Source: a virus (Duplodnaviria; Caudoviricetes). Taken from it: a stretch of 64,000 nt of DNA. The stretch covers positions 102,603-166,602 of the IMG/VR virus record IMGVR_UViG_3300048762_000252. One strand, 5' to 3'. Numbering within the stretch: position 1 is the first letter of the stretch; every line of letters starts with the position of its first letter. A program made the translations under genes and the position numbers. This document shows, one piece after another, positions 11,346 to 31,964 of this stretch. The notes beneath the pieces were generated by a model that ran no database searches, was not told where the DNA came from, and saw nothing but the letters and a program-made list of their open reading frames with translations.

Positions 11346-14300
11346 TCAATCAAAGAACTCAGACAAAGAAGCTCGTGGTTGTGTGTCCCATCCAATAGCC
11401 GATAAAATCAATTGGAGTGGTTCTAAAAAACTTTTAGAAAATTGTGTTTCCCAATCAATATACTGATGCATTCCAAACTCAGTAGGAACAGAAGTAGAAA
11501 ACGCCATTGCATTAACATTCACCGAATTAGGTTCCAAAAGATAGAAGAACTTTATCTTCTCACCATCTTTGATTTTTGAATACTTGCCGTCCAGATTGTA
11601 TTTGTCGATAAGACTGTTATAGACCAGCACACCTTTAGTATGGAATGGAGTGCCTTTGGTGTAGATAGTTTTTGGATCGCCATACTTTTCCAAACCATTA
11701 ACACTACGTGGAAAACTTACATCTTCAATGCGCTGCTGTTTGAACTTTTTCTTTGTGTCTTTTACAAACTTAAAGATAGCCTGTTGATCTTTCTCCATGA
11801 TGATAGTCACAGCTTCTTTCATAGCGTCTCGACAAAATTTTGGCACGCTAGACTTAGCAATTTCTACACCCATTATTTTTAATTCTGCCGGGTCTTTACG
11901 GATGCCTTCCTTGTCACGAACATTCACAAGGTAACGCTTTTTTGCAGTCCAGATGCCCTTGTCGCCAATGACTTCACGGTTCATGAGCAAATACTCACCC
12001 ACGCCATTTAAATAGCGTTCGGTAAGCAGCCGGAATAAACGGTTGATCTCTTTCTGAATGGCTTCTTTGCAAAGATTATCCACAAAGTCAACTTTCTCCA
12101 TTGTGGTTCCATTTGGACAGAATTTGTCCACCGCAGTTTTAAGTGCAAGGTACACTGAATCTGTATCACTATAGATAACGAATTTTTGTGGCGGGTCACA
12201 TTTTAATTTTTTGTTCAAATACGCATCTAAACCACGCCCGATGTATTGAATAATGAACTGACCGGTAGTGGTAACTGCTTCAGCATTTTTTACATCAAAC
12301 CAGCGTGCATACTCGTTTCCTAGACTGCCATAAAGCGCATTCAACATAATTTTCATGGCGTGCTGTTTCAGATCATAGATAGAAATTTCCGTCTCTAATT
12401 CTGATTTGCGGGTTTGATACACCATTTGCACATCGCCATCTACTTCGGAGTCTGATGGTGCTACCAATTGTGCCAGTGTTTTTTTGGCTTCCTTCAATTT
12501 CTTCCTATACTCCAACCGATTCTGAAACAATTCTTCTATCATGACGCTGTAAAATGATTTTGGATCACGCCGATAGAATACACCATTAGCACCTACAGCA
12601 ACATCTTTTATCTTCAATTCTTCCCATAATTCTTCTGTCATGCCTGCTACAATGGCATCTGGGTTAACATTCATCTTGCCTTCATCGTCAGCAATCATAA
12701 GATGAGAATCCAAGTATGTCTGATACTTTCGCATAAGCGGCGTCAGTTCTTTATATGTTAACTTGGTTTCCATACCAATATTAAGTGTCTGCATAAGCCG
12801 TGGATAAAGCGATTGTACATCTTCGGCTACAATCCACTCATACATACCCGGTACTGGCTGCATTACAAACGCACCTGTAAATTGTGCAGTTTTGCTAACT
12901 TCGCTTTTCTGTGGAATGACCACACCTTGTGCCAATAAGTGATTACAAATTAGCGTATCCCATGTTCGTACCTGTGAAAGTACATCCACAACATTGACAT
13001 GAGCGTGATAGGCAACAATCAATTGAAGCTCAATTAGTTTGCGCTTGGCATCAATACGATCTACCAACCGGACATCATGAATGTTGTACTCAATAAATTT
13101 CTTGAAATCGTTCTCGTAGAGCGCACTCAAGCTGCCGTATTCGCTGTAGTCTAACTTACGTTCCTTTAATTCGACTTCAGCAATGTAATCGAGACGATAG
13201 CTTTCCCGTGGTTCCAAGACATTCTTGCGATAGATTAACAGGTAGTCGAGTACAGACAGACCAACCACATCATAAACTACTTCGACTTTGTTGTAGACAT
13301 TAATAGTAGATTCCCTAATTTGATTCCACGGAGACAGGCGCTTGGCATCGTCTGAAGACATGATGCGAGAGATACGATTGATAAGATACGGAATATCATA
13401 AAGACGACAATTATGAACATGAACCCCTTGTGTGACAAAATAGTGTGTTGAAGTTTCAATATCTTGCATTTCAACATACTTTGTGGTCGGAGTAACACTG
13501 TCGATTTTCACCCAGTACGATTTCAAATCTTCTGCAAAAGCAAGTTTAAGTTTTTTGCTGCTGCTTCTCTGTCTTGAAAAAGGAATAATAGATGTTAAAC
13601 GATCCGCCTTAATGGGATGATGTAAACACAGTCCGTCTAAAAATACTGAATTTATTGTGTCGTGCGGAATACTAACTCTATTGTTATACACATAAGCAAC
13701 GACACCATTCCAATTTAGTAATTCTTGAATTGCTTCACGGTTATGCCGATGAACATTAGCAATACTTACTTCGCCATCAATAGTAATATGACCATCCCCA
13801 TCAATCAATCCAGAAACGAACGCTTGAAATTGTTCATTTGATAAAATTGACAATGCAGAGACATTTAATCGTTTGCAGCCTGTCACTGTATCAAAGATTA
13901 AAGGCAGCAATGGTTTGAGTGGACACCGATCATGTATGTTGATCCTTGTGCGTTTCACATTATCTTTATCTTCTGTTATGCCGTCGCCGGATCTACATGT
14001 CATTCGAGCGGGATTTTTCCATGATTGAAATATGCTGTGTATTTGCTCAAATAATTTTGGCTGTTTGTTGTAAAAAGACACAATTTTGTTTGTTAGGTCA
14101 TACGAACCGTCAGTAAACAAGCATCCAATTAAATGACAGATTTCATTTGATACTGGCTCTTTCGTAACAGGATGACAGAAGGCTTTGTTGTCATTCGTAC
14201 CAAGAAAAACTTGGCAATATACATCCTCGTTTTTTAATAGCTGGCAAATGTCTCGTACAGTCAGATCACCCCCAATTGACTTGTCTTTCAAAGTTCCAGT

Positions 14301-15113
14301 AAGTTTTGAATAATTTTGCGGATGCTTCCACCTTATAGGGAAGATGTGATCTTTAGAAGATTCAATTGTACGGCCATCTGATAACTTAATTTTCCAGATT
14401 GCCTTTTTTGATCTTGGAAACACCTGTCGCACTTCACCATTGAATAACTGGGCATTAGATTCAATTTCAGAAAGTTGTTTTATTTCATTCTTCGCCCAGA
14501 CATGAGATGTGAGTGGCAAACAATTCCACCCGGTTACGATATCCGGCTCTACTGTCTCCCACAAATCCAAAAATTTGTCGAACAGGTCAAGCTCGTCTTC
14601 ACATTGGTGATACTTGATTACAGTATCTTTATGCTCTTCGTTGTAAACAGATTCGTTGAATGGCTGGCAAGCAAATACATGAAAAACACCATCGGTACTA
14701 CATTTCATAGTGATGGCTTGGACTTCATTCAACGCATCTTTTGCTTCAGAGAACCCATGCTTGGATTCAACTTCAATATCCAGATTGCAAACGACTAACT
14801 CACTCAATTTGTAGTCGATGTGAATTGGGTAAGTTTCGTTGATGTAGGCATATTCATAGCCGGTGTTGCCGTACACTCGGAAGTTATCTACACCTTTGTA
14901 CTTCTGGAGAAATTGATAACATTCCTGCATTGTTCCCGGTTGGATTGGTTCTACAGGCGTGCCATCTGGTGCGTGAAGAGTGGATTTCTTGGTTGTGGTA
15001 ATATAGAGTGTGGGTTTGTATTCGGTTTTGAACTTTCGACGTTTGCCGTCTTTGATCTCACGAACTAAAATGTGATTGCCTTGTCTTGCAACATGACTAT
15101 AGTACGAACTCAT
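11346..15113 (-). CDS. gp43: family B DNA polymerase with intein
   Basis: DIEV (ExoI), GWN...YD (ExoII), DVQSLYP, KIMLNALYG, YSDTDS, KKRY. Confidence 0.98.
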   Translation of the reverse strand: MSSYYSHVARQGNHILVREIKDGKRRKFKTEYKPTLYITTTKKSTLHAPDGTPVEPIQPGTMQECYQFLQKYKGVDNFRVYGNTGYEYAYINETYPIHIDYKLSELVVCNLDIEVESKHGFSEAKDALNEVQAITMKCSTDGVFHVFACQPFNESVYNEEHKDTVIKYHQCEDELDLFDKFLDLWETVEPDIVTGWNCLPLTSHVWAKNEIKQLSEIESNAQLFNGEVRQVFPRSKKAIWKIKLSDGRTIESSKDHIFPIRWKHPQNYSKLTGTLKDKSIGGDLTVRDICQLLKNEDVYCQVFLGTNDNKAFCHPVTKEPVSNEICHLIGCLFTDGSYDLTNKIVSFYNKQPKLFEQIHSIFQSWKNPARMTCRSGDGITEDKDNVKRTRINIHDRCPLKPLLPLIFDTVTGCKRLNVSALSILSNEQFQAFVSGLIDGDGHITIDGEVSIANVHRHNREAIQELLNWNGVVAYVYNNRVSIPHDTINSVFLDGLCLHHPIKADRLTSIIPFSRQRSSSKKLKLAFAEDLKSYWVKIDSVTPTTKYVEMQDIETSTHYFVTQGVHVHNCRLYDIPYLINRISRIMSSDDAKRLSPWNQIRESTINVYNKVEVVYDVVGLSVLDYLLIYRKNVLEPRESYRLDYIAEVELKERKLDYSEYGSLSALYENDFKKFIEYNIHDVRLVDRIDAKRKLIELQLIVAYHAHVNVVDVLSQVRTWDTLICNHLLAQGVVIPQKSEVSKTAQFTGAFVMQPVPGMYEWIVAEDVQSLYPRLMQTLNIGMETKLTYKELTPLMRKYQTYLDSHLMIADDEGKMNVNPDAIVAGMTEELWEELKIKDVAVGANGVFYRRDPKSFYSVMIEELFQNRLEYRKKLKEAKKTLAQLVAPSDSEVDGDVQMVYQTRKSELETEISIYDLKQHAMKIMLNALYGSLGNEYARWFDVKNAEAVTTTGQFIIQYIGRGLDAYLNKKLKCDPPQKFVIYSDTDSVYLALKTAVDKFCPNGTTMEKVDFVDNLCKEAIQKEINRLFRLLTERYLNGVGEYLLMNREVIGDKGIWTAKKRYLVNVRDKEGIRKDPAELKIMGVEIAKSSVPKFCRDAMKEAVTIIMEKDQQAIFKFVKDTKKKFKQQRIEDVSFPRSVNGLEKYGDPKTIYTKGTPFHTKGVLVYNSLIDKYNLDGKYSKIKDGEKIKFFYLLEPNSVNVNAMAFSTSVPTEFGMHQYIDWETQFSKSFLEPLQLILSAIGWDTQPRASLSEFFD
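13410..14522 (-). mobile_element. 371-aa intein with LAGLIDADG endonuclease in the ExoII motif of gp43
   Basis: GWN|CLPLTS...SKDH...GCLFTDG...SGLIDGDG...HVHN|CRLYD. Confidence 0.95.
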
Positions 15114-15186: not shown

Positions 15187-15677
15187 TGATTGAAATTGGC
15201 AAAGTATATTGTGATATGGATCAGGTACTTACCAACTTTTTGGGCGGCTCCCGCAAAGCACTTGGCCAAGAGTTTAACGATCCGTGTCTCGGTACTGACC
15301 ATGAAAAGTGGCTCATCCTCGCCAAAAATCCAACATTCTGGTTAGACTTGAAATGGATGCCCGGTGCCCATCAAATATGGGACCGAATTAAAAACAAAAA
15401 TACATACATCTTGTCTGCGTGCCCACCCAAAGATGAAAATCCGCTTTGTCCTTCACAGAAAAAAGAATGGTGTCAACGTGAACTTGGCATTAGTTCAGAT
15501 CGGGTATTCACCGTTCAACGCAACGATAAGAAAAAATTTGCAATGAATGGACTGCCAAATCTTTTGATTGATGACCATTATGAAACCGTTGATGTGTGGC
15601 ACCGAGCGGGAGGTTACGGCATCTGGCATCAAACTGTACCGGAAACTCTTATTGAACTTCAGCAATTTGGTTTATGA
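15187..15677 (+). CDS. HAD-family 5'(3')-deoxyribonucleotidase-like protein
   Basis: YCDMDQVL, ILS, K..W, LLIDD; GTG start inferred within ORF 15072..15677. Confidence 0.8.
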
Positions 15678-16086
15678 GAGAATTCGATTCCTTCCAAAGC
15701 TGTATCAAACCTTTGTGAAAATTTGATGGCTTCTCTGCGATCATCATCTGAATTTGGTGAAAAGTGAACCATTCAATGAAGCTAGTTTCCCATTTGAACA
15801 TTTCATCAGGATTGAAATAAAACATTTCTGGAACCACGCCAATGAAATTATGGTACTCGAACCCATGCAATCGACAAACGAACGCCTTGTAGAGCTTTAT
15901 AGCGCCAATGTAGCCAGTTTCTTCGATAACCTCGATCACAGCGCTGTCTTCCGGCGACGATCCAGCTTTACACATGCCACCAATGACACACCAGCAATTT
16001 CCTTTGTTGACTCTAGAAGAACGCCACGCTAGACAGATTTTTCCAGTGTCTTTTGCGATAGGTAAAATTCCACTAGCTGTGTTCAT
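15649..16086 (-). CDS. Nudix hydrolase (degenerate box)
   Basis: GGMCKAGSSPEDSAVIEVIEETG. Confidence 0.75.
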   Translation of the reverse strand: MNTASGILPIAKDTGKICLAWRSSRVNKGNCWCVIGGMCKAGSSPEDSAVIEVIEETGYIGAIKLYKAFVCRLHGFEYHNFIGVVPEMFYFNPDEMFKWETSFIEWFTFHQIQMMIAEKPSNFHKGLIQLWKESNSLINQIAEVQ

Positions 16087-16628: not shown

Positions 16629-17555
16629 TCAAACTAGTTTTACACCCCAACCAAGTTTCTGCCGCAAAATTTGGTAGTATGTGAAAGACGGATTTACAAT
16701 TTCCATGCGATGAGAATTGCAGAAAACATCAACATTGCCATGCATCGGGCAAATTTCTTGGCCGTCTACCGAGACATAAAGATCATCACTTAATGGCTTG
16801 ATGCGAATACGCACATCATTAGAAAGAACGAGAGGTCGTTGGGATAGACCTTGTGGACAGATCGGCGTGATTACGATGTTCTCGCAACTTGGGTGAATAA
16901 TTGGCCCGCCAGCGGACAAGTTGTATGCCGTGCTGCCGGTAGGAGTCGAAACAATCAAACCGTCTGCTCGATATTCACAAACAAGCTCCAGTTTGGCCTG
17001 CTGCACGCTTGCAATAGTTCGATCAGCAGCGTCACGAGCCTTGTCTTCGGCAACGCCCAGTTTAGTCCTGTTGAAATCGTACTTCGCTCGCCATAGCTCA
17101 TCGAGTGCGCCGGGTTCCTGGTAATCTGGACCATCTCGATCCATGACATAAACGCCCACCTTTACCAATTTGGCAAGCTGATTTTTCGAAATGACAACTT
17201 CGTTTACGGCGTTGTATTCTCTGAACTTGTCCAGCGGTCTGAATGGCACGACCCGGACTCGCAATGTACGTCGCTTTGTGAGCGTATAGGAGCCTTGTAG
17301 GAAACTTTTGATAGCTTCCTGGTAGTTTTCCTTGTCCGTGCTTGTCAGGAAGCCTAGATGCCCTGTATTGATCACCAAAATGGGATTGGGAACACCTTTC
17401 CGGCCAGCCGCCAACACGGAGCCATCGCCACCAAGCACTATGGTAAAATCGGCAGCGTCCATATCATAGGAACAGGCCACACCCATTGTTGAAAGAAACG
17501 ACACGACATCCGCTTCAATAGTGGAGTTCTTTAATGCAAAAATGTACGCTTTCAT
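16629..17555 (-). CDS. nadK: NAD kinase
   Basis: LGGDGS, NTGHLGFL, NE, DGLIVSTPTGSTAYNLSAGGPI; start at the ATGA overlap 17555. Confidence 0.95.
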   Translation of the reverse strand: MKAYIFALKNSTIEADVVSFLSTMGVACSYDMDAADFTIVLGGDGSVLAAGRKGVPNPILVINTGHLGFLTSTDKENYQEAIKSFLQGSYTLTKRRTLRVRVVPFRPLDKFREYNAVNEVVISKNQLAKLVKVGVYVMDRDGPDYQEPGALDELWRAKYDFNRTKLGVAEDKARDAADRTIASVQQAKLELVCEYRADGLIVSTPTGSTAYNLSAGGPIIHPSCENIVITPICPQGLSQRPLVLSNDVRIRIKPLSDDLYVSVDGQEICPMHGNVDVFCNSHRMEIVNPSFTYYQILRQKLGWGVKLV

Positions 17556-17866
17556 TTTCCAGCCGTCATCACCATCGTCACGGCGGCATTCACGGGTACG
17601 CCGTTGCCTTCCTTCAGCCATTCCACCACGGAATTCTGAATGATGGTGAATGTGATAAACTCCAGACTTTTGGAATGCTGTTCTTTGAGACATGCCAGCA
17701 ATTCGGACGGCCATTCCCGGTAATCCGACTGCAAAATGCGAATGCGCTGGCGCTCTTGTTGGACCGTAAGGCCCCATCTCTCCGCACCGGCTTCAAGCTC
17801 TTCGTCGGTGTAGAGTTCCCATTGCGGTTTTGCTTTCTGAATCACAACGCTCCTTTGTAGAAACAC
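17552..17866 (-). CDS. hypothetical protein
   Basis: ORF coupled to nadK, promoter upstream. Confidence 0.6.
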   Translation of the reverse strand: MFLQRSVVIQKAKPQWELYTDEELEAGAERWGLTVQQERQRIRILQSDYREWPSELLACLKEQHSKSLEFITFTIIQNSVVEWLKEGNGVPVNAAVTMVMTAGK

Positions 17867-17918
17867 GAATCTACAATCCTATCACAATGCCGCAAGTTCT
17901 GTCAAGCGGCTTTCCACT

Positions 17919-18104
17919 TCAAATCGTCACCACTTCCAAAGCCTTAACGTAGTCTGCGGATTCCTGGACCGAAAAACCATTTTCGCCGAGATATTCCAAG
18001 GCATCGTCAGGAGTGAAGAGGACATCGCTCAACCGGATATGGCCGAAAGAGTACTCACCCGAAAAGCGGATTTTGGCGTCTGGAAGGACTGCTGTAGTAG
18101 TCAT
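17919..18104 (-). CDS. small hypothetical protein
   Basis: Leaderless promoter TTGACT..TGCTATTCT directly upstream. Confidence 0.65.
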   Translation of the reverse strand: MTTTAVLPDAKIRFSGEYSFGHIRLSDVLFTPDDALEYLGENGFSVQESADYVKALEVVTI

Positions 18105-18233
18105 GGTTTAAGAATAGCAGAAACCACGAAGAAAGTCAATAGGTACATCTAACTTTTACGGCTTTTACCGGCTTGGAAATCGTTGCAGGATATGGAGTTG
18201 CCGGTTGGACCAACACCCAAGAGAGTTCTTGCT

Positions 18234-18419
18234 TTATTTCGTCCACATTTTTCCGTCCAGGTTTAACTTCACCATGTGCGACAATTTTTTCCATGAAAGC
18301 GATGCGAACGATGACGACCATCCGATTAAATTCAACATTTTTTCACGGGTAAACTTATCCGAAGCGGCCCATTTCTCTTGAGCCGAAACGGTCTTTTCTT
18401 CTTGCATAATAGCAATCAT
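18234..18419 (-). CDS. small hypothetical protein
   Basis: ORF with TTGACA..TAAAAT promoter upstream. Confidence 0.5.
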   Translation of the reverse strand: MIAIMQEEKTVSAQEKWAASDKFTREKMLNLIGWSSSFASLSWKKLSHMVKLNLDGKMWTK

Positions 18420-18431
18420 ATACCTATTTTA

Positions 18432-19466
18432 TCACAACTGAAGTATATGTGTCAACTTCAAACCATTTTTAACAACCGGTCGATTTTTCCAGCCATGTGT
18501 CGTTTGAACATGGTGTGCTCGAACATATTTTGCCACAGATTTTCTAAAGCTGCCGTAAGGAAATGACTCGGCAACTCGAACCACATAGCCTTCGTGGTGA
18601 TCCGTATCTGTTGGTGCCAGGGAACGGACTTTCTCTTCGTCCCAAATGCCACGCCAAATTACCGGCACAGTGGCTAAGTCAAGCACAGCGGCATATTCAA
18701 CAGTGTCGTCCCAAGATAGACAAATATTGTTTTCATCCCAAATCGAGAACACCAAAAAGTATGATAGCAAATCGCTGTATGGAATTGAATGGAGTGCATA
18801 CACATTTTCTCCACATATTCTCAAATCACCTATATCGTAACAAATTCGACCATGAAGATTTTTTACCCATCCTCTACTTTCGTGGTTGTCTGTGTCGAGA
18901 GAACGAGCATGAATATGATCGTTGTACATGGTAGTGTTTTCGCCGTCCATTTTTTCAGTGACCACAACTTCCCGACCTTCAAATACTGAGGTTGAAGGAA
19001 GTACTCTATCGTCAGATGTTAGGCCGGGAGAATTTGGTAAGTGGAATGTCCTTGGGTACTTCACATACTTTCGAAAAAGCAGCAAAACTCCACCAGCCTT
19101 CAAAACTTTTTGAACGGATTCGTCGTTGAACAATTCGCCTTTAGTTCTTGTGCCATCGGCGTGGATGATGTTGCTCCATTTATCATAGTTGTATTCGTCG
19201 TACAAGTGCTCTGGTAAATGGATTTTTGTGATACCAACTGCCGCTCGGAGTTCATCACACGAAAGAATAGTCATCTCTGCTTTCATATGGCACGTTGGAT
19301 CACAGAGCGTAACGCCATTGTCTAGGTAGTAGCCGCCATCGTCCCACAAGCGACGTTCCAGAATGTGATGAGAGTCGAGTTTGCCAGTATTACCACAAAT
19401 GACACACTTATGGTGATCCCGTTCCAATACTGCATTTCGAAATGTATCACGATCCAATAGTTGCAT
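18432..19466 (-). CDS. HNH domain fused to an RNA ligase family domain
   Basis: N-terminal CVIC..HHILER..NG.TLC..CH; C-terminal KYPRTFHLP, TEKMDGEN, EGYVVR, KYVR. Confidence 0.88.
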   Translation of the reverse strand: MQLLDRDTFRNAVLERDHHKCVICGNTGKLDSHHILERRLWDDGGYYLDNGVTLCDPTCHMKAEMTILSCDELRAAVGITKIHLPEHLYDEYNYDKWSNIIHADGTRTKGELFNDESVQKVLKAGGVLLLFRKYVKYPRTFHLPNSPGLTSDDRVLPSTSVFEGREVVVTEKMDGENTTMYNDHIHARSLDTDNHESRGWVKNLHGRICYDIGDLRICGENVYALHSIPYSDLLSYFLVFSIWDENNICLSWDDTVEYAAVLDLATVPVIWRGIWDEEKVRSLAPTDTDHHEGYVVRVAESFPYGSFRKSVAKYVRAHHVQTTHGWKNRPVVKNGLKLTHILQL

Positions 19467-20163
19467 AACCTATTCCTTGCGTAATATATCGACGCAACTT
19501 TTCTATTATATCAAGTGTTAGCTCACTTTTCAATGTGTTAGCTTTGTGCGATATAACAGCCACATTGCCTTTTTCATATCCCTTCGTATTGTCAATTCGA
19601 TCCAATGAAGGACTATAATTTGTCGATTGTTTGTCTGATGGACATAATTGAATGCCCAAAATAGGGCACCGTAATGGGATTACTATATCGGAGAGTTCAA
19701 TCGTAAACGGTAATCCATATCGTTTAGCCCTGGCTTTAGCTGAATAATACAAACATCTTTCGGGGTGTTGTCGGCGCAGAATTTTGTTTCTTGCTCTGGT
19801 GGAGTCACTTCTCGATTTGGCACGCACAACATCAATATGAGCAATCCTCCAAAGGTTATTACTGACTTTATGTTTTTCACGACACACTCCACAAACGGTC
19901 AAATCATCAACAACAAGATTGAGTCCACAGTCAACACACAAACCTTTTGACTTCAATTCTTCTCTACGGCGTTTAGATATTTCTGCGTAACTCAAACCAG
20001 AATTTTTATTCTTACATTTAAGCGAACAAAATTGTCGATTGTTCTTAACTTGCCAGGGTTCAGCATAAAATATTGCTCCACACCGCCGACACTTTAGAGT
20101 TATTGTTGTTCGTTGACCGTTTTTTGATCCTTTTATCCTTCCCATAATATCCAAGAACCTCAT
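19447..20163 (-). CDS. putative homing endonuclease (Zn-ribbon, SLDRID family)
   Basis: CPILG..SPSLDRIDNTKGY..GNV..IS..AN..K; own TATAAATA promoter. Confidence 0.75.
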   Translation of the reverse strand: MRFLDIMGRIKGSKNGQRTTITLKCRRCGAIFYAEPWQVKNNRQFCSLKCKNKNSGLSYAEISKRRREELKSKGLCVDCGLNLVVDDLTVCGVCREKHKVSNNLWRIAHIDVVRAKSRSDSTRARNKILRRQHPERCLYYSAKARAKRYGLPFTIELSDIVIPLRCPILGIQLCPSDKQSTNYSPSLDRIDNTKGYEKGNVAVISHKANTLKSELTLDIIEKLRRYITQGIGYATIGS

Positions 20164-20212
20164 CGTTTTTATTTATACAAACGATGATTTGTTAATGGAT
20201 ATTTCCTTCTTT

Positions 20213-21223
20213 TCAAACAAACAACCCGCTTATCGATTCGTCGTCATGAATCGCCTTAATTGCCGAAGCAAAAATCGGCGCTACGCTCAATGTACGAATC
20301 CTTGGAGACGATTTTTGTAGTGTAATTGGAATTGTATCCGTAAATAGAACTTCTTCTAACGGAGATTTCTCAATTTTTTCAACCGCAGTCATTCCGGCTT
20401 TGTCATCATACGAAAGCACACCATGAGTAGCAGCCGCACCCACCCATATTGCGCCACGATCTACAAGTGCCTGTGCGCCTTTACACAGCGTCCCGGCAGT
20501 GTCTACCATGTCATCAACCATAAGACACTTTCGTCCTCTTACATGGCCGATAACATTCATTACTTCACTTGTATTAGCAGCTTCTCGATACTTATCAATA
20601 ATCGCCAACGGCACGCCTAACTTCATTGCCATTAGTCTCGCACGAGTTACACCACCAGCATCCGGCGATACAATAGCCAAATTGTCGGTGCCATAATTTT
20701 TGCGAACATAATCTACAAAAATTGGCAAGGCATACAGGTTGTCTACTGGAATTTCAAAGAAGCCGCCAATGGAACCATTATGAAGATCCATCGTAAGCAA
20801 CCGATCCACGCCAACACCTTCAAGCATGGTTGCTACTACCTTGGCCGATATTGGCACACGGGGCCTGTCCTTACGGTCTTGACGAGCATACCCGTAATAC
20901 GGTATCACGGCTGTTGTTCTTGCAGCAGAAGCCCGCTTTAGAGCATCTGCAATCAACATAACCTGCATGAGATTGTCATTCGTAGGAGCGCATGTAGGCT
21001 GCACAATGAAGCAATCAGTGCCACGAACATTTTCACCAACTTCTACAAAGATCTCATCGTCCGCAAATTGCTTGATGGTGATTACTCCAGGTTTAATGGA
21101 AGTTGAAGCTGGCGCATCATACAATTTTCGATTTGGAAAAAACAGCGAAGTCAATTCTTTACAAATCGTTGTGGTGAATGCTGGATTTGCAGTCCCGCTG
21201 AATACTCGAAGATCTTGTGGCAT
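20213..21223 (-). CDS. prs: ribose-phosphate pyrophosphokinase
   Basis: PYYGYARQDRK, MDLH, VSPDAGG, DDMVDTAGT, ATHGV. Confidence 0.95.
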   Translation of the reverse strand: MPQDLRVFSGTANPAFTTTICKELTSLFFPNRKLYDAPASTSIKPGVITIKQFADDEIFVEVGENVRGTDCFIVQPTCAPTNDNLMQVMLIADALKRASAARTTAVIPYYGYARQDRKDRPRVPISAKVVATMLEGVGVDRLLTMDLHNGSIGGFFEIPVDNLYALPIFVDYVRKNYGTDNLAIVSPDAGGVTRARLMAMKLGVPLAIIDKYREAANTSEVMNVIGHVRGRKCLMVDDMVDTAGTLCKGAQALVDRGAIWVGAAATHGVLSYDDKAGMTAVEKIEKSPLEEVLFTDTIPITLQKSSPRIRTLSVAPIFASAIKAIHDDESISGLFV

Positions 21224-21231
21224 TAAATTTA

Positions 21232-21450
21232 TTATTCCTCTTCGTCTTGCGCCAACATTGCGTTGTATAAGCGTCCACACTTCGGACATTTGTCCATTGG
21301 AACCCACAATAACGCTAATGATTCCTGTTTACAAAACTGGCAGCGATAGTTGTCTCCACATTTAATCTGATATAAGTGGTTCTGTCGGGAGATGCGCTCT
21401 GCCAGTTGCTCGCCCGTCTCCCGTTGAACCTGTATCTGATCGCTTTTCAT
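21232..21450 (-). CDS. small Zn-finger protein
   Basis: CQFC and CPKC pairs. Confidence 0.6.
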   Translation of the reverse strand: MKSDQIQVQRETGEQLAERISRQNHLYQIKCGDNYRCQFCKQESLALLWVPMDKCPKCGRLYNAMLAQDEEE

Positions 21451-21620
21451 TACGCTTCGTGTTCCACGTAATGCAGATCTTCATGCGGATCTACTTCAAC
21501 GCTGGCTGGATACTGCACTTGACAAGACACGCACTTGAGGATGGTTGTTCCATCATCTTTGTGAATAACTTCCCAGTGAGCACAATCACCGCACTTACAA
21601 ATCAAAAGTTTCGCTTTCAT
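21450..21620 (-). CDS. 56-aa Cys-rich protein (not in ORF track)
   Basis: AAGGAG RBS; MKAKLLICKCGDC...CVSC. Confidence 0.6.
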   Translation of the reverse strand: MKAKLLICKCGDCAHWEVIHKDDGTTILKCVSCQVQYPASVEVDPHEDLHYVEHEA

Positions 21621-21657
21621 TTAAGTTTTCTCCTTTCTTTAAAATTTGGATGTTATT

Positions 21658-23238
21658 TTATTCAGCATCAAGTAACCTTTTTGCATCTACGATATCTTCT
21701 TCCGTAGGCAAGGCAGGTTCTTGATCCATCCATTCGTTCGCACGAGCACGAACCGTCTCAAAAGATTCATGAATCAACATATCGCCATTACGGAAAATCG
21801 GGCGAAGTAAGTTGCCTTTTGGTAAAGGCTCACCCTGCTTCAAAGTTTTGGTGACAAAACGATGTTCGCCGGTTTCTTTATCATATTCCTTGACCACCGC
21901 AAACCGACCAGCCTTACTGCCCTTACCAGGGTCCGTGATTGGGTCCTTCATAACTTCACGCCAATTGCCACTGGCATCAGTCAACGAAGATAACTTAACG
22001 GCCATTTTCTGTGTGTCCCTAGTGGACGCCTGAAGCAATGCACCGCCCATACCAAAAGCAGCGATGTTATCGAGAGACCACTTTGCGCCTTCGGTGGCTG
22101 CGACCATGTTGTAGATCGCATCATAATCGTTTTTGTCACCCTGCAATGTGCGGACATGATTGAGAACACGATAACCCTTGGCATTGACGGTCCAACCGAA
22201 TTTCTCGCCCAAAATCCACAAAAGTTTCATCATCGTGGGAATCGATTCGCCACTATCCGGGCGCACCACAACGATACCTTCACGTTCCACAACTTCTGTG
22301 TGCAACTCCGTGCCAAGGATCTTCTCTGCGAAGTCAAAAATGTTGTAACTATCGCCTACCATAGCGATAATTCCAGTAGGGCATTTATTCAAGATATCAC
22401 GCACCACTTCGACTTCAAGCTCACGCCCTCGCTGAGTCATGACACTGTGCTCTGTCGCACGCACAGAGTTACCCGGCATATAAGTGGGATCGCCATCTTT
22501 GTCCATCACGCCATCGCCGTAAAATTCATTTACATAGTCGATGGCTGGAACAGTATCAGTTCCCCTAAAATTGACTAAGTGAGCAGCGCCAGCAATTTCT
22601 GCGCTTTCTTCGGAACTTACACCACGGTAGCCGAAGTCATGCAACTTCCAGATGATGTCAGCTTCGGTGCCGCTTCGTTTCAATCCTTCATGTAGAACGA
22701 TTTTGCAGTGCTGTGAGAGTGTGCAAACCGTAATTGGATTCCAAGTTTTGAACATCAATGGCTCAATGTAACCTGGAAGCCAAGCGCAATTGGGATCGGT
22801 GTTGAAGTACGTCATCAACGGTGTCTGAACCGGCACACCTGTCTGGTTGCGATTTTTGGACTTTTTACTGAGACCTTCCGGCAGCGCCCAAACTTCCAAC
22901 GGCAGACGACCACCCAACTTTTCGGCAATGTACATCCAGCCGTCGTAGTTGAATACACCATCCATACCATAATATTGAGTATAGAACTTACGTGCTTTTT
23001 TCACCTGTTCTGGTGTGATAACCCGACCACAAAGATACTTCATGGCAAAGCCTTGAAAGCCAAATGGAATCATGGTCTGAAATTGCCCGCCTCGGCTGGT
23101 AAGGTAATCATAAGTCTGACTGATTCCAGGTTCGTAGAAAAGCCAGTGAGACGGCTTATATCCGTCTGTCTTTTTGGCAAAGATTCGTTCGCTTGGTCCA
23201 CGTAAGATATGTGGAATTTCGGTCGCTGTTGCACTCAT
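21658..23238 (-). CDS. nadV: nicotinamide phosphoribosyltransferase
   Basis: TDGYKPSH, LHDFGYRG, AHLVNF.GTD, ATEHS, DSY, VRPDSG, QGD, FGMGG. Confidence 0.95.
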   Translation of the reverse strand: MSATATEIPHILRGPSERIFAKKTDGYKPSHWLFYEPGISQTYDYLTSRGGQFQTMIPFGFQGFAMKYLCGRVITPEQVKKARKFYTQYYGMDGVFNYDGWMYIAEKLGGRLPLEVWALPEGLSKKSKNRNQTGVPVQTPLMTYFNTDPNCAWLPGYIEPLMFKTWNPITVCTLSQHCKIVLHEGLKRSGTEADIIWKLHDFGYRGVSSEESAEIAGAAHLVNFRGTDTVPAIDYVNEFYGDGVMDKDGDPTYMPGNSVRATEHSVMTQRGRELEVEVVRDILNKCPTGIIAMVGDSYNIFDFAEKILGTELHTEVVEREGIVVVRPDSGESIPTMMKLLWILGEKFGWTVNAKGYRVLNHVRTLQGDKNDYDAIYNMVAATEGAKWSLDNIAAFGMGGALLQASTRDTQKMAVKLSSLTDASGNWREVMKDPITDPGKGSKAGRFAVVKEYDKETGEHRFVTKTLKQGEPLPKGNLLRPIFRNGDMLIHESFETVRARANEWMDQEPALPTEEDIVDAKRLLDAE

Positions 23239-24431
23239 TTTGCTCTATTCTCCTGTATCTCATTACGAATGTTTGATGACGAAACATCACGAAAATTCAA
23301 TGGTTCCGTGACTTCTTTACAAAGCGCAGCAAACCGTTCCGGCAATCCGTCCACACCAGCATGATACACTCCGTTCACTTTTCGACCAAAAACCAAGAAA
23401 CGGGTTCCACAATCCATAAAGGTTTTATAAACCTCATCTACATTTCCGTACTTAGGATTTACAATGCGAATTATTGTATCATACCCAACAAGAAATGTTG
23501 TGTTAGGAAAAATTCTAGCTTTCTCCGCAAAGGTGGGCGCATTTGTCAACCACACCCGCCGATCACCCACAGTCTTCAATCGCTCTTCAAGAGAAATAAA
23601 ATCCAAGATCGGCTTGTCAGCATTACGGATGCTTAATTCGTAATCACAGCTACCAATACCATGCCGCTCCACATAAGCAGCCATTTCTTCATGACCGGCG
23701 TGCGCCGGATTGAAGCTGCCAGGGAGCAAGTATCGTGGCATATCACTCCGACCAAACGGTAGAAAAATGCCCATGTTTGGAGTGTAGGCCAACGCTTTGA
23801 CTTTGCTGTCCAACAATTCCGGGAAGTAGCCGCTGTAAATTGAAGACTCCCGGCGTACAACATCAACAGCAGGAAGCGCCAAACGGCCTTCGATACCACA
23901 ACCTTCCGCCACCAGATTCAACAGCAAATCCGCATTGATGCCTTCTTCCCATTCACGGGTCTGAATGGCATTCCAAGGTGTGAACTTTTTCGGATCAATC
24001 GTGACGGAAAGCGAAACTGTTTTGCTGCCAGTTTGGAGCGCTGCGTGGATGTAGTGAATACGTCCTTCCCGCTCATTAGGGGTCTTCTGGAGGGCCGAAG
24101 AGCAAGCCACACCAATGACCGGGGCATTGTCCGTTGATAGCGCCAACGCCTTCTGGTACGCAGCCATAGCCAATTGGCGAGTAGTCGCCTCACTGACGAA
24201 CTTTTCCGGCTCCCCACCCAAAAGTTCCACCGTTTCGGTATTAGCATAAGGAACACGGGCGGAAAGAAGCGTGGCCGATCCACCACCACGCCTCAAAAGC
24301 ATCGGAAGAACATCTGTGCCGCCACCAGTGATTATCAGCACAACTTTCGTGCTAGTTTTGTGAATCAGCGGTACTAATTCTTCTGGCGTCATCATTCTCA
24401 TATTTTCATACTTCAAATTCCAGTATGGCAC
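23235..24431 (-). CDS. CinA/PncC-like domain fused to an HxGH nucleotidyltransferase (NMNAT-like)
   Basis: TGGG..GGSATLL..VPY; PGSFNPAHAGH, NADKP, F.VGYDT, VSSSNIR; start probably near 24395. Confidence 0.75.
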   Translation of the reverse strand: MPYWNLKYENMRMMTPEELVPLIHKTSTKVVLIITGGGTDVLPMLLRRGGGSATLLSARVPYANTETVELLGGEPEKFVSEATTRQLAMAAYQKALALSTDNAPVIGVACSSALQKTPNEREGRIHYIHAALQTGSKTVSLSVTIDPKKFTPWNAIQTREWEEGINADLLLNLVAEGCGIEGRLALPAVDVVRRESSIYSGYFPELLDSKVKALAYTPNMGIFLPFGRSDMPRYLLPGSFNPAHAGHEEMAAYVERHGIGSCDYELSIRNADKPILDFISLEERLKTVGDRRVWLTNAPTFAEKARIFPNTTFLVGYDTIIRIVNPKYGNVDEVYKTFMDCGTRFLVFGRKVNGVYHAGVDGLPERFAALCKEVTEPLNFRDVSSSNIRNEIQENRAK

Positions 24432-24483
24432 AAATTCAGATTGTTGTCAATTTAGATGCGACATTGTGGGGCCGAGAGTACCA

Positions 24484-24819
24484 TCATTTAACTTGTCGCA
24501 CGCTATCAAGCATCTTTCCGCATTCGGGACATTTGCCTTCGTCCGCAAGAGCCTGCACTTCCCGAATTTCTTCGGCTTCTTCAAGCTCTTCCTCGTCTTC
24601 GTCGCCAAAAGCGTTACCCATGAAGTCGATAAAGATTGCGCCTACACGCCTGCCCCAAGTGCCTTCATCTGATACATGAGCATAAACATTGTAGCAACCA
24701 TCTCCAAAACCCGTAGAGACACAGACGCCCAAACCCAAGGCTGGCAGGAAGACCTTCTGGTGTTTCACCGGGGTCGGCTTTATCTTTAATTCGTCTCGAT
24801 TCAATGTTGGTTTACTCAT
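24484..24819 (-). CDS. DUF4241-like hypothetical protein
   Basis: STGFGDGCYNVY motif; leaderless TGTTATACT promoter. Confidence 0.55.
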   Translation of the reverse strand: MSKPTLNRDELKIKPTPVKHQKVFLPALGLGVCVSTGFGDGCYNVYAHVSDEGTWGRRVGAIFIDFMGNAFGDEDEEELEEAEEIREVQALADEGKCPECGKMLDSVRQVK

Positions 24820-24916
24820 ACTTTCAGTATAACACAAATTGAAAGGTATAAATAAAACAGGCGACAGAAACGCTTTCCACGCTTTTGTCGCCCTAATCAC
24901 AACGGAGTGACCCGTC

Positions 24917-25636
24917 ATGCCTGAGCCTATTTATCAATCGACCAAAACTTTTGATGGAATTCCTTGTTCAAACTGTGGAGGAACATTACGATATATCAGT
25001 AATAAAAATTGTTATAAATGCGCTAAAGCACGACGAAAGAAATATCTTCAATCACCAAAAGGAAAAGCAACACGAAAAAATTATTATCTCTCTCCTACAT
25101 ACAAAGCATCCAGAAAATTATACCATCAAACAAATGGAAAAGAAATAAGACAAGAGACTGTACACCGATATAAAAATTCTTCAAAAGGAAAATTTACTTA
25201 TGATCGGTGGCTTCGGTCTCAAGCAAGAAAAGAATATCTAAAATCATCAAAAGGAAAATCTGTTAAGGCAGTCGCAGCCCAAAAGCGACGAGCACTTATT
25301 AAAAATATTGAAGGCTTCTATACGACTCAAGAATGGCTTGATCTTAAAGAACAATATGGCAACCGATGTTTATGTTGCGGACGACTTGGATCTGAATTAG
25401 ACAAGCCATTAGAACAAGATCATATTATTCCGGTCTCAAAGGGTGGTTCCAATTGGATTACCAATATTCAACCTTTATGTCATACTTGTAATGACATGGG
25501 GCACAAAGGAACAAAAATTATAGATTACCGGCGAATCTTGTTCAAGAAAAACAACAGCAGCGGCAATGCCATAAGCATCGTAGATGGCTCTGGTGTTTCA
25601 TTAAGTGTTACGCTGGTCAATGTGGCATCGCCTTGA
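24917..25636 (+). CDS. HNH endonuclease
   Basis: CLCC..DHIIPVSKGGSNWITNIQPLC..CN. Confidence 0.9.
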   Translation: MPEPIYQSTKTFDGIPCSNCGGTLRYISNKNCYKCAKARRKKYLQSPKGKATRKNYYLSPTYKASRKLYHQTNGKEIRQETVHRYKNSSKGKFTYDRWLRSQARKEYLKSSKGKSVKAVAAQKRRALIKNIEGFYTTQEWLDLKEQYGNRCLCCGRLGSELDKPLEQDHIIPVSKGGSNWITNIQPLCHTCNDMGHKGTKIIDYRRILFKKNNSSGNAISIVDGSGVSLSVTLVNVASP

Positions 25637-26232
25637 AATTGATACCCAAAAGGAATTCCCGCTGATGATTGCCTTCCGTCGCTGTCAGTGTAGATAGGCC
25701 AAGTCATCATACTTTCAATATATGAAAATTGCTGTCCTACATCTGCAAGAAGCAAATTTTGAAGATCGGCAGAACCAAACTCTTTTGGTAGTGGCGTTGC
25801 CGTTGTCGCTGAATCATAGCCTAAGTATTCATATGCAGCATCAAATGTAGCAGATTCATAATATCCCCCATTTCCAAACTCAACTGATGTGTATGTGTAC
25901 GCACTAATCAGAACATCCGTAATGCCGCTGTCCGGTGTGAACATAGATTTGTCGTACCCCATACTAAACAATTGAGACAACGGACTGTAGATTTGTGTTC
26001 CGTCTCCAAAAATAAAAGAAGTGTCTGTAGGGCCTAAAAGACTTGCGTATGTAAAAGTGTCATCCAAGACAGTCTGAACATTCATGTCGAATGGTTGGAA
26101 AGTTGTTACAATATTTGAATTGGAATCTGTTAGTTGGTTCATATGGACGGAAAAATCAAGCGTGATTGATCCGCCACACAACGACGCAGTAAACAAAAAC
26201 AATGCTGTAAGTAATACCGTTAGTTTTTTCAT
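25525..26232 (-). CDS. secreted PEP-CTERM sorting-signal protein
   Basis: Signal peptide MKKLTVLLTALFLFTASLCG; C-terminal TPEPST, hydrophobic helix, KIRR. Confidence 0.85.
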   Translation of the reverse strand: MKKLTVLLTALFLFTASLCGGSITLDFSVHMNQLTDSNSNIVTTFQPFDMNVQTVLDDTFTYASLLGPTDTSFIFGDGTQIYSPLSQLFSMGYDKSMFTPDSGITDVLISAYTYTSVEFGNGGYYESATFDAAYEYLGYDSATTATPLPKEFGSADLQNLLLADVGQQFSYIESMMTWPIYTDSDGRQSSAGIPFGYQFQGDATLTSVTLNETPEPSTMLMALPLLLFFLNKIRR

Positions 26233-26239
26233 TTTGTAC

Positions 26240-27259
26240 TCATTTCGGCGGAATACCACAGTCACATGTTAAGAGTGTGTTGCAGACATTGCAATGCTGC
26301 GGTCCTATGCGTTGCTTTTCATATTCGCACAGATCTTGATAAAGGTAGATGTGCTCTCCCTCAATTTCTTCCTGGTTTATATCTTCTAGGCAGAACCACT
26401 TAGTATCGCAAAGATCGTCACCGGCCTTGATCTGATCTTCGGTTCCCATAAAGGTCGTCACATAAAATAGCGTGGTGATGCCATCTACTTCGTCTTTGTA
26501 ACGCCAGTCGTTGACATTGCGACTGGAAACATAACATGGTTTTTCAAAAACTTTTTGCGGTTCGATGCCTTTTTTCAATACTTCTTCCATCGCTTCACGC
26601 CAGACGGCAGATTCAAAATTAGAATCTTTTCGATCTTTGAAACCGCCAGGAAATCGCCAGCCATGCTCACCCGGCTTTTTACCAAAAAGATATAAAACTT
26701 TACCGCCAACAACCCGACGAATTGCAATATCCACTGTGGGCCAAGAAATCGGGAACTGGCTCTGCAATCCAAAAATTACACCACGGCGAAATTTGTCATC
26801 AGATACAAGAGCATAATCAAGTTCGGCCTTCCGTGATAAACATTCCAAATCACCGATGGACAATGGATGGGAATTGCCCTTCTTTGTTTTCCACATACCA
26901 CCATTTTTCAGATACAATTCCATAAAGTCAGTATCGGCATACAGACATACAGTTGGAGAATTGGAGAACAGCGACTTAACGGCATCCTCCAGGGCAACAA
27001 CTTTGTTCTTGGGATACTTCCGGTCTACTACAGGTACAACATGAATGTATCTTTTGAAACTGGCAAAATACTGCCGAATCATTGCTTCACGTGTAGCATA
27101 GTCCAGCGGAGCGTTTTTCGTTGGCGTCACTCGGCGCACCGGCAGTGCAATCACAATCTGCACGTGCGCTTGCTGCATTTCGGTGAGAATATTACGATGA
27201 ACTTCGAGCAATGACGATGTTTGAAACGGTGCGTAAAGAACTCCAACTGATTCTTGCAT
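26240..27259 (-). CDS. NadM-like/Nudix bifunctional protein (ADP-ribose pyrophosphatase)
   Basis: GVL.APFQ, NAPLDYATRE, FRRGVI, PTVDIAI, FPGGF..REAMEE, DWRY, AGDD. Confidence 0.85.
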   Translation of the reverse strand: MQESVGVLYAPFQTSSLLEVHRNILTEMQQAHVQIVIALPVRRVTPTKNAPLDYATREAMIRQYFASFKRYIHVVPVVDRKYPKNKVVALEDAVKSLFSNSPTVCLYADTDFMELYLKNGGMWKTKKGNSHPLSIGDLECLSRKAELDYALVSDDKFRRGVIFGLQSQFPISWPTVDIAIRRVVGGKVLYLFGKKPGEHGWRFPGGFKDRKDSNFESAVWREAMEEVLKKGIEPQKVFEKPCYVSSRNVNDWRYKDEVDGITTLFYVTTFMGTEDQIKAGDDLCDTKWFCLEDINQEEIEGEHIYLYQDLCEYEKQRIGPQHCNVCNTLLTCDCGIPPK

Positions 27260-27353
27260 ATATTTTAGTATACCACATTTAGCGGAGCGAATCGTAATCA
27301 TCGATGGGGCCGGTTGGATAAATCGTCCAAGTGATTCTATCGCCACCACCGGT

Positions 27354-29592: not shown

Positions 29593-29766
29593 TCAGAAAA
29601 TTTCAATCTCCACCGGCACGAAGCGCTGACCATTTTGAATGATCGCTTGGCCTATGCTGGCAATCATCCATTGCTGTCCGTTCCATTCAAATTGGTGGCC
29701 TACCCACAAACCTTCACCGATCAGTTCTTCAAATTTTTCAACCGGCAGCAAATGTGTTTGGGTCAT
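29593..29766 (-). CDS. 57-aa hypothetical protein (not in ORF track)
   Basis: ATGA overlap with the gp62 stop. Confidence 0.55.
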   Translation of the reverse strand: MTQTHLLPVEKFEELIGEGLWVGHQFEWNGQQWMIASIGQAIIQNGQRFVPVEIEIF

Positions 29767-30170
29767 TTCTTTCTCTTGGTGAGTCCACCTTCGTTTAAGT
29801 AATCTCTAATCTCTTCGAGTTCATCCGGCGTATGAAGATCAATTACTTCCATCGCTTTTTCGGTGCTGTAGTCGTAATATCGTTTGATGAGATCCAAATC
29901 TTCCGGCACTACAGCTTTATGCAACTTAGCAAATCGCTTTGCTTTCGGCAAACCATAAAGCAGAAATTCATACTGTAATTGTGGGTCCAACAATGGCAGC
30001 TTGTTCAAAGCATTCACAATCAGAACGGCATCTTTGTGATAACTCAATAATCGATTGATGATGAAAGATGGGTAGCCAGTAATCACTGATGGATCAACTT
30101 CCAGATCTCTCATCACATTCTTTTTCGTACTGTTGATGGACGTTAAGTAAAGTCCTAAATCAGCGGGCAT
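29763..30170 (-). CDS. gp62: clamp loader small subunit
   Basis: YPSFIINR.LSY..D, QYEFL..K.KRF, YY.YS.EKA. Confidence 0.92.
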   Translation of the reverse strand: MPADLGLYLTSINSTKKNVMRDLEVDPSVITGYPSFIINRLLSYHKDAVLIVNALNKLPLLDPQLQYEFLLYGLPKAKRFAKLHKAVVPEDLDLIKRYYDYSTEKAMEVIDLHTPDELEEIRDYLNEGGLTKRKK

Positions 30171-30475
30171 TAGAATCCGCCTTGACCTTCACCACCAACA
30201 ATCTTGTATGGTCTCTGCCGCTTAGGTGCGCCATGTTGTTCCATACAGGCGACAGCCAACGCACCAATCTTACGAACGATGTGCAACGCCTTTTGATTGG
30301 CGGTTTCGTCTTCTTCATGGGTTACAATGTGAAGAGCTTCTTCAGTGTAGTCCTGAATATAGACCAGGAACTCTGTGATAGAATGAACTCCATGAGTTCC
30401 ATTTCCACCCCATTTTTCGTCCTGATAATCCCGTTCGCCATCAAATGCTTCGTATACTGCTGATCTTTTCGTCAT
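30170..30475 (-). CDS. hypothetical protein (all-alpha, MazG-like)
   Basis: ERDYQD.KW..KI.ALAVACME. Confidence 0.55.
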   Translation of the reverse strand: MTKRSAVYEAFDGERDYQDEKWGGNGTHGVHSITEFLVYIQDYTEEALHIVTHEEDETANQKALHIVRKIGALAVACMEQHGAPKRQRPYKIVGGEGQGGF

Positions 30476-30477
30476 AA

Positions 30478-30699
30478 TTACATCCCAAATTTCTTCTTGA
30501 GTTCGTCCATTGCAGCGCTGTCGTCAACATCACGATCTGTCTCACGTTGCATGATACATTTGACTCCAAATGGAGTTGCCAACAAAGTAGCAAAATGCCA
30601 TCCGGCTTTACCCAATTCGTTGAACTCTAATTCAATATCAGTCTGTTGAACTAGATTGATTACTTTTGATTCCCAAATTTTCATAAAATATGTCTCCAA
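30478..30699 (-). CDS. DUF4177-like small protein
   Basis: NELGKAGW motif. Confidence 0.55.
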   Translation of the reverse strand: METYFMKIWESKVINLVQQTDIELEFNELGKAGWHFATLLATPFGVKCIMQRETDRDVDDSAAMDELKKKFGM

Positions 30700-31961: not shown

Positions 31962-31964
31962 TTT

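Follow-up and report, generated by a model that had tools for sequence, protein, structure and literature searches.

Depletion of nicotinamide adenine dinucleotide (NAD+) is among the commonest strategies of bacteria against phages, and the known phage answers to it are two-gene pathways. In NAD+ reconstitution pathway 1 (NARP1), Adps pyrophosphorylates ADP-ribose, and Namat makes NAD+ directly. In NARP2, the NadV/NatV pair (Nampt plus Nmnat) of Vibrio phage KVP40, nicotinamide and phosphoribosyl pyrophosphate (PRPP) yield nicotinamide mononucleotide (NMN) and then NAD+, a pathway thought costly because it uses PRPP (Osterman et al., bioRxiv 10.1101/2024.02.11.579819). NARP3 (PnuC plus NadR; PMC13464706) starts from imported nicotinamide riboside. 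In bacteria, prs-nadV operons carry a dedicated paralogue of PRPP synthetase (Prs), and recycling of ADP-ribose through ribose-5-phosphate and PRPP to NAD has been proposed for them (Rodionov et al. 2008, PMC2330246). Here we analyse five NAD genes between gp62 and gp43 of an uncultured phage. The stretch examined (the window, 64,000 nucleotides) is the final 64 kb, positions 102,603 to 166,602, of the linear 166,602-bp IMG/VR virus record IMGVR_UViG_3300048762_000252, whose CheckV completeness is ~79%.

The initial annotation had placed five co-oriented NAD genes at 16629-27259 of the window, and all five are present there on the minus strand, their identities upheld by homology, motifs, predicted fold or phylogeny:

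26240..27259, minus strand: NadM-Nudix homologue, 339 amino acids from M31 (open reading frame (ORF) 26240-27349); Pfam NUDIX, and weak NCBIfam matches to bifunctional NMN adenylyltransferase (NMNAT)/Nudix families
23235..24395, minus strand: PncC(CinA)-like plus NadD-like nucleotidyltransferase fusion, 386 amino acids from M13 (ORF 23235-24431, 398 amino acids)
21658..23238, minus strand: nicotinamide phosphoribosyltransferase (Nampt/NadV), NARP2 type; NF006629 451 bits (cut-off 405), Pfam NAMPT_N and NAPRTase
20213..21223, minus strand: class I ribose-phosphate diphosphokinase (Prs, PRPP synthetase), 336 amino acids from M29 (ORF 20213-21307), with a ~17-residue N-terminal insertion
16629..17555, minus strand: NAD kinase (NadK), 308 amino acids, likely start M75 (ORF 16629-17777); Pfam NAD_kinase N-terminal domain E 7e-13, C-terminal domain E 7e-26

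We consider it probable that this interval is a virus-encoded island for rebuilding NAD(P)+, in which three enzymes are added to a NARP2-type core of Nampt and NMN adenylyltransferase. In the proposed pathway the Nudix domain of the NadM-Nudix homologue would cleave ADP-ribose to AMP and ribose-5-phosphate, which the phage class I Prs would convert with ATP to PRPP. Nampt would then make NMN from PRPP and nicotinamide, the fusion would adenylylate NMN to NAD+ with its NadD-like domain, and the phage NAD kinase would turn part of the NAD+ into NADP+. Through these five steps ADP-ribose and nicotinamide, the two compounds that NADase defences leave behind, would be recycled, the host PRPP pool would be spared and NADP refilled; the island may well serve counter-defence. 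More tentatively, the genes may make up a complete, self-supplied viral NAD(P)+ cycle that restores both NAD+ and NADP+ after NADase defence, with a displaced NMNAT and a PncC-like pseudo-deamidase that binds NMN and hands it to the adenylyltransferase, away from the host deamidase, and with NADP+ restored by an NAD kinase of a dedicated phage clade. If true, the genes would form a reconstitution pathway in its own right, free of the PRPP cost of NARP2 and carrying counter-defence over to the NADP pool.

The route from ADP-ribose to NAD through ribose-5-phosphate, PRPP and NMN, as drawn in the initial annotation, is not a new idea, having been put forward in 2008 for the bacterial prs-nadV operons. 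What is new is one phage that encodes the whole loop, plus NadK, with a swapped NMNAT; the chemistry itself is known.

The closest likeness is to NARP2, with which the locus shares a PRPP-type Nampt (in the clade of Vibrio phage nt-1), a NadM-Nudix homologue, an NMN adenylyltransferase and the chemistry to be expected of them. It differs from NARP2 in that the NadM-like domain lacks catalytic motifs and so is not of the competent NatV type; the fusion, which is non-orthologous to KVP40 NatV, appears to replace it. In addition, NARP2 draws on host PRPP, whereas the window phage brings its own Prs as well as an NAD kinase. With NARP1 the locus has in common the PRPP synthetase-like and NAPRTase-like superfamilies and the goal of making NAD+ from ADP-ribose and nicotinamide, but here Prs is full length, Nampt falls outside the Namat clade, and ADP-ribose, instead of being pyrophosphorylated directly, would have to be cleaved by Nudix first. 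Bacterial prs-nadV operons with nadM likewise link a dedicated Prs to NadV and have the same proposed route (PMC2330246); unlike them, the present genes lie in a lytic-type phage with no NrtR regulator and include NadK and a degenerate NadM domain. NARP3 is alike in being a phage pathway that restores NAD+ and differs in its entry point, imported nicotinamide riboside; a search for PnuC (PF04973) found no match in the ~79%-complete 166.6-kb record.

Enzymes encoded by the island

The assignment of Prs is strong at the sequence level. The protein scored 407.7 bits against NCBIfam NF002320 (cut-off 297) and 345 bits against TIGR01251 (cut-off 113), contains the Pribosyltran_N domain, and keeps the DLH motif, the DKxR motif of the catalytic flexible loop (DKYR) and the ribose-5-phosphate loop DTAGT (DDMVDTAGT). 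Its alignment with Burkholderia Prs (3dah, E 5e-94) extends to residue 316 of 319 and takes in the C-terminal helices. Loss of the C-terminal alpha11-alpha12 module is the defining signature of Adps (2026 Adps structure paper, PMC13586617); the window Prs retains this module. The ~600 Prs-like matches in cultured phages form two groups. The majority are of the Adps type, 23-30% identical to the query and ending at its residue ~271-299 of 336; one of them, from Pseudomonas phage Adele, carries the Adps annotation. The minority are full-length Prs, 34-51% identical, several of which are host contamination. In a maximum-likelihood tree the window Prs and its orthologue at locus L004 grouped with a chromosomal Prs of Acinetobacter and with the Prs of Microcystis phage MaAM05, and three Adps references split off with 100/100 support. 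The NF002320 score, the C-terminal module and the branching with bacterial Prs bear out the earlier description of this Prs as canonical-looking: it is a full-length class I enzyme with a module absent from Adps, rather than a NARP1-type Prs.

Nampt is assigned with equal strength from its sequence. In the Nampt tree the window enzyme fell in a 33-row clade that also contains the enzyme of the KVP40 relative Vibrio phage nt-1, and the Namat references (Adele and PHB05) lay outside, beyond a branch with support of 100 in the SH-like approximate likelihood ratio test (SH-aLRT). The initial annotation's choice of Nampt over Namat is therefore supported by its place in the NARP2 clade, and the phylogenies that it had called for, of Prs against Adps and of Nampt against Namat, both separate the window proteins from the NARP1 enzymes. 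A third clade of Nampt-like proteins, strongly divergent (mostly ~550 amino acids; branch length 2.4) and apart from both the KVP40-type Nampt clade and the Namat references, has members at loci L088, L089, L097, L100, L116, L122, L125, L131, L141, L144, L150 and L156. These divergent genes adjoin intact NadM-Nudix genes, and often canonical-length Prs genes too.

The stop codon of the fusion gene overlaps the start of the Nampt gene by 4 bases. The AlphaFold model of the fusion protein (predicted local distance difference test score, pLDDT, 90) was matched by Foldseek, with a probability of 1.0 for both halves, to CinA/PncC proteins in its N-terminal half (2a9s, 5vu3, 6mr3) and to NadD in its C-terminal half (9fyb, 3dv2, 2h29). 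The latter carries GSFNPAHAGH and SSSNIR, motifs of the GxFxPxHxGH and SSxxxR types, which are invariant in 22 homologues. The NadD-like domain is thus a good candidate for the NMN adenylyltransferase of the pathway, with NMN, rather than nicotinate mononucleotide (NaMN), as its presumed substrate.

The PncC NMN deamidase has a catalytic dyad, Ser31/Lys63 in Agrobacterium tumefaciens numbering (PMC5384747). We located the equivalent positions in the fusion by their spacing from the conserved equivalents of G46, S48 and Y58 of the Agrobacterium enzyme. The lysine was absent from all 22 fusion homologues, its place being taken by Thr, Ser, Phe or Leu, and the serine was replaced by Thr in 17 of them and by Gly or Ala in the other 5. 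The positions matching the substrate-binding S48, Y58 and R145 were invariant. The domain thus resembles PncC/CinA NMN deamidases in its fold and in these three residues, and differs from them in lacking the catalytic lysine, in its unconserved serine position and in the attached nucleotidyltransferase. Since the dyad is missing and the binding residues are kept, the PncC-like domain probably binds a mononucleotide and does not act as a Ser/Lys deamidase; with no catalytic lysine, an active NMN deamidase was judged unlikely. ESM Atlas look-ups of the CinA-like domain yielded no function beyond the fold.

The fusion family is widespread, with members on phage-sized contigs and on bacterial contigs of Mb size, and some of its members are labelled NadD/PncC by JGI. 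We found no paper characterizing it in the literature searched. Its gene abuts Nampt in 6 of 12 non-redundant viral loci, the window included, and the island would provide a first functional context for the family. In four other large viral or proviral records (L007, L008, L011 and L012) the neighbour of the fusion gene at ~6 kb is a divergent, full-length Prs-like gene, and no Nampt gene is near; the fusion may therefore also act outside a Nampt pathway.

With its start at M31, which it shares with more than 1,000 homologues, the NadM-Nudix gene reaches to 27259, exactly the end coordinate in the initial annotation. Its AlphaFold model (pLDDT 91) matched over its full length (Foldseek E 4e-16) the bifunctional NMNAT/ADP-ribose pyrophosphatases of Francisella and Synechocystis (2r5w, 2qjt, 2qjo). 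The family is large (1,243 representatives at E<=1e-10) and abundant in uncultured viral contigs (276 IMG/VR loci) but nearly missing from cultured phages: among 50,697 phage records, cultured or deposited, only 6-11 matches turned up, mostly in huge phages. Across the broad family the N-terminal domain carries the motifs RFQxxxL(H/T)xxH, GxRDSF and SxTxxR. In the subclade of the window protein the HxGH, GxRDSF and SxTxxR motifs have all decayed, as seen in the alignment, and the Nudix box (REx2EE) and a downstream S..DWRY motif are invariant, with R221, E222, E225 and E226 invariant or nearly so.

We then cross-tabulated the state of the NadM motif against the presence of a fusion gene within 10 kb in 82 non-redundant viral loci. 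An intact motif without a fusion gene was found at 74 loci, and a single-residue motif variant, again without a fusion gene, at 4. The motif had been lost at all four loci with a fusion gene (the window, L002, L004 and the distant L016), and none of the 82 combined an intact motif with a fusion gene. Because the four fusion-positive loci represent ~2 independent lineages, we regard the association as suggestive rather than proven. Loss of all three motifs in the subclade led us to reject the NadM-like domain as NMNAT and leaves the PncC-like/NadD-like fusion as the only credible one. Of the two nucleotidyltransferase candidates in the initial annotation, then, the fusion stands, with GxFxPxHxGH and SSxxxR kept, but the NadM-like domain is degenerate. 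Judging from these motifs, NMN adenylylation has probably moved to the fusion, the old NadM domain persisting as a scaffold for Nudix; decay of NadM alongside the fusion looks like non-orthologous displacement inside a virus pathway. That the Nudix domain is an ADP-ribose pyrophosphatase is our proposal, and is the weakest link of the pathway.

The NadK assignment is likewise strong by sequence. The initial annotation had called an NAD kinase, and both Pfam domains and all the family motifs (GGDG, NE, TPTGSTAYNLSAGGPI and DGQ, all intact) are indeed present; the start at M75 is indicated by homologues and by the protein's own sequence. GGDG, NE/D and the glycine-rich TPTGSTAYxxSAGGP motif were invariant in an alignment of 23 NadK sequences. 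An insertion of ~43 amino acids (~16989-17114, minus strand), predicted to be helical and charged, was unique to the window enzyme: none of the 22 aligned relatives had it, not even the closest (66% identity). The 48 closest NadK clusters, 38-66% identical, formed one clade against sampled bacterial NadK (<=~36% identical) with SH-aLRT 100, and its members with readable context adjoin VanY-like, Nudix and gp43 genes on T4-like contigs. A search of IMG/VR with the single sequence found no NadK relatives; an alignment-based search did. NadK matches in cultured phage records were almost all host contamination, and the literature that we searched held no earlier report of a phage NAD kinase. The phage NadK clade raises the question of whether a collapse of NADP(H) matters in NADase immunity or phage replication needs extra NADP.

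Several members of the NadK clade and several fusion homologues lie on contigs of equal size (399,930; 145,869; 85,217; 18,458; 13,994 and 10,128 bp). On the metagenomic contig of 399,930 bp the fusion homologue is 86% and NadK 62% identical to the window proteins.

Conservation of the gene order

The closest syntenic relative of the island (loci L004, L018 and L047) is on IMGVR_UViG_3300050821_002957. At 405,631 bp this contig is far above the usual size of a T4-like genome, and might represent a jumbo relative or a concatemer, or else result from chimeric assembly. It keeps the order NadM-Nudix, 144-amino-acid gene, fusion, Nampt, Prs, RNA ligase, NadK, VanY-like, Nudix and gp43 (L004/L018). 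On two ~21-kb contigs (L002/L021 and L003/L020) the island order recurs without Prs, and L019 retains NadK, VanY-like, Nudix and gp43. In a distant lineage (L016/L017; 27-40% identity) the fusion, NadM-Nudix, Nampt and Prs genes, in this order, form a compact cluster. Because the same gene order recurs in related IMG/VR contigs, the clustering is not due to chance.

Linkage to Prs reaches beyond these relatives. A Prs gene of canonical length lies within 10 kb of Nampt and NadM-Nudix genes in ~20 further viral loci, and about one quarter of the sampled viral NadM-Nudix loci have one nearby. From this it seems that NARP2 often sits at the centre of a larger module, in which the phage's own Prs and an ADP-ribose-cleaving Nudix would close the PRPP-drain loop of NARP2.

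Alternative explanations

Several observations weigh against an NAD(P)+ rebuilding island. Prs is missing from the island in L002 and L003 and is therefore dispensable there. The syntenic contigs are close kin and hence amount to few independent observations. Mobile and unrelated genes interrupt the island, and an operon would be stronger evidence of linkage than neighbourhood within a hypervariable T4 region. NaMN is the usual preference of the NadD fold, and an NAPRTase gene was found in only one of five further fusion-bearing records, most of them incomplete. The Nudix domain has one extra residue in its Nudix box, is distant in sequence from characterized ADP-ribose pyrophosphatase domains (E 0.008), and has RppH, NudC and NrtR among its single-domain Foldseek matches.

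The same enzymes could act as a general metabolic booster, that is, as auxiliary metabolic genes that enlarge NAD+ and NADP(H) for ribonucleotide reduction, folate and thymidylate metabolism and ADP-ribosylation, with or without a NADase defence in the host. We regard this as a serious, if doubtful, explanation. NARP2 raises NAD+ in defence-free cells also, and it was equally shown by experiment to defeat NADase defences (Osterman et al., bioRxiv 10.1101/2024.02.11.579819). NADP+ serves as cofactor in redox reactions and biosynthesis; the phage, a member of the environmental T4-like group (cyanophage, pelagiphage and Methylophilales phages), itself carries auxiliary genes of the cobalamin/porphyrin type; and phage NadK and Nampt co-occur in jumbo phages rich in metabolic genes. 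An ADP-ribose-directed Nudix family within the island and a NADAR gene elsewhere in the genome, however, point to the handling of NAD breakdown. The two roles are also compatible, and a booster need not exclude counter-defence.

A rather unlikely alternative concerns the entry into the pathway: Nudix may trim NAD(H), a role proposed for NadM-Nudix, decap NAD-RNA or destroy ADP-ribose-derived immune signals, and Prs may use ribose-5-phosphate of the host. Besides the single-domain fold neighbours and the weak similarity to proven ADP-ribose pyrophosphatases noted above, a review of viral NAD systems, in which the NadM Nudix regulates NAD+ and phage Nudix counters ADP-ribose-derived signals, speaks for such a role. 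Yet the best full-length structural matches are bifunctional NMNAT/ADP-ribose pyrophosphatases, the Nudix domain has remained strongly constrained through the decay of its partner domain, and its linkage to Nampt and Prs persists.

The neighbourhood itself might be fortuitous, with Prs and NadK independently serving nucleotide synthesis beside a NARP2 module in a hypervariable region rich in homing endonucleases. Three HNH/endonuclease genes and unrelated ORFs do break up the cluster, Prs is absent from L002/L003 as said, and NadK and the fusion gene are ~45 kb apart in one 224-kb phage. We nevertheless think this improbable, given that Prs repeatedly lies near Nampt in many distinct viral loci and also in the bacterial prs-nadV operons (PMC2330246). 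Moreover, 7 of 10 other IMG/VR records with a more distant NadK carry an NAPRTase-family gene that passes the Pfam cut-off, and in an eighth there is a match below the threshold, compared with the 22-33% of medium-sized and jumbo phages in which a survey of viral NAD systems found NadV.

A deamidated route, in which the PncC-like domain is active through other residues, converting NMN to NaMN, the NadD-like domain makes nicotinate adenine dinucleotide (NaAD) and the host NAD synthetase completes NAD+, is more improbable still. It would suit the CinA/PncC fold with its three kept binding residues, the classical NaMN preference of NadD and the JGI labels, but the lysine is missing in 22 of 22 homologues, the serine is not conserved, and the route is longer and depends on the host. 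Least credible is a NARP1-type pathway (Adps and Namat), which the shared protein superfamilies might suggest and which the curated cut-offs, the C-terminal module of Prs and the Prs and Nampt trees contradict; we reject it on these grounds.

The phage and the surroundings of the island

The window phage is T4-like, with gp41 helicase, gp43, gp62, gp44, gp45 and gp46 all on the minus strand. Its gp41 helicase shares only ~52-53% identity with the helicases of Methylophilales phage Melnitz, cyanophages, Pelagibacter phage HTVC008M and Stenotrophomonas phage DLP6, and a near-DNA search of the NAD island against the 50,697 phage records gave no match. The low helicase identity and the lack of a near-DNA match place the phage in an uncultured lineage of the environmental T4-like group. 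On the T4 map regA occupies the gp62-gp43 interval; here the interval holds ~14.6 kb of extra genes. The boundaries of the island and the other genes in it are:

29763..30170, minus strand: gp62 clamp-loader subunit, the upstream boundary (phrog_225, E 4e-34)
25525..26265, minus strand: PEP-CTERM protein, 246 amino acids, with a signal peptide and a PEP-CTERM-like C-terminal tail (TPEPST, hydrophobic stretch, basic residues)
24917..25636, plus strand: HNH gene
24484..24918, minus strand: 144-amino-acid protein between the Nudix and NMNAT genes, with only sub-threshold family matches
19447..20163: endonuclease VII/HNH-like gene
18432..19466, minus strand: HNH-RNA ligase fusion between Prs and NadK (Pfam RNA_ligase E 2e-31; phrog_24030 E 2e-130; HNH matches at residues 7-72)
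15649..16086, minus strand: small stand-alone Nudix hydrolase, 145 amino acids, adjoining gp43 (Pfam NUDIX E 2e-9)
11346..15113, minus strand: gp43 family B DNA polymerase with a LAGLIDADG intein, the downstream boundary (Pfam DNA_pol_B, DNA_pol_B_exo1, LAGLIDADG_3, Intein_splicing)

Because of the intervening genes (the HNH-RNA ligase, the endonuclease VII/HNH-like and plus-strand HNH genes, the PEP-CTERM protein and small ORFs), the five NAD genes, although co-oriented, are not one tight operon. Sigma-70-like promoters lie ahead of four genes (Nudix, fusion, RNA ligase and NadK) and would fit early expression; as consensus matches only, they are weak evidence.

The 144-amino-acid protein is 68-73% identical over residues 62-113 to tblastn matches in L004/L018 and has the same position in L004. 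The 145-amino-acid Nudix hydrolase is 44-66% identical to, and holds the same position as, counterparts in L002/L003, L018 and L019, in the order NadK, VanY-like, Nudix, gp43. The PEP-CTERM protein, inside the NAD island, had no family match; it hints at a Gram-negative host with exosortase. ESM Atlas look-ups gave no function for a 471-amino-acid upstream gene.

In gp43 (1,255 amino acids) the LAGLIDADG/intein insertion is at residues ~217-568. The genes gp44 and gp62 are neighbours in T4; here a 439-amino-acid ORF (30681-32000) and a 101-amino-acid ORF (30170-30475), both on the minus strand and without family assignment, lie between them. No NAD-dependent ligase was found in the ~79%-complete 166.6-kb record. 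Elsewhere in the genome, outside the window, is a NADAR-domain protein (G000:C1:61104-61559, E 5e-27), and a third Nudix protein is encoded at 45198-45707 of the window (minus strand); both are further candidates for the handling of ADP-ribose derivatives.

The HNH-RNA ligase, ~71% identical in L002-L004 and kept in position in related contigs, probably has a separate function in RNA repair. In Pseudomonas phage Adele (L166), Adps/Namat is flanked directly upstream by genes for RNA ligase and polynucleotide kinase, and downstream by a macro-domain gene. RNA-repair and NAD-rebuilding genes may thus share counter-defence islands.

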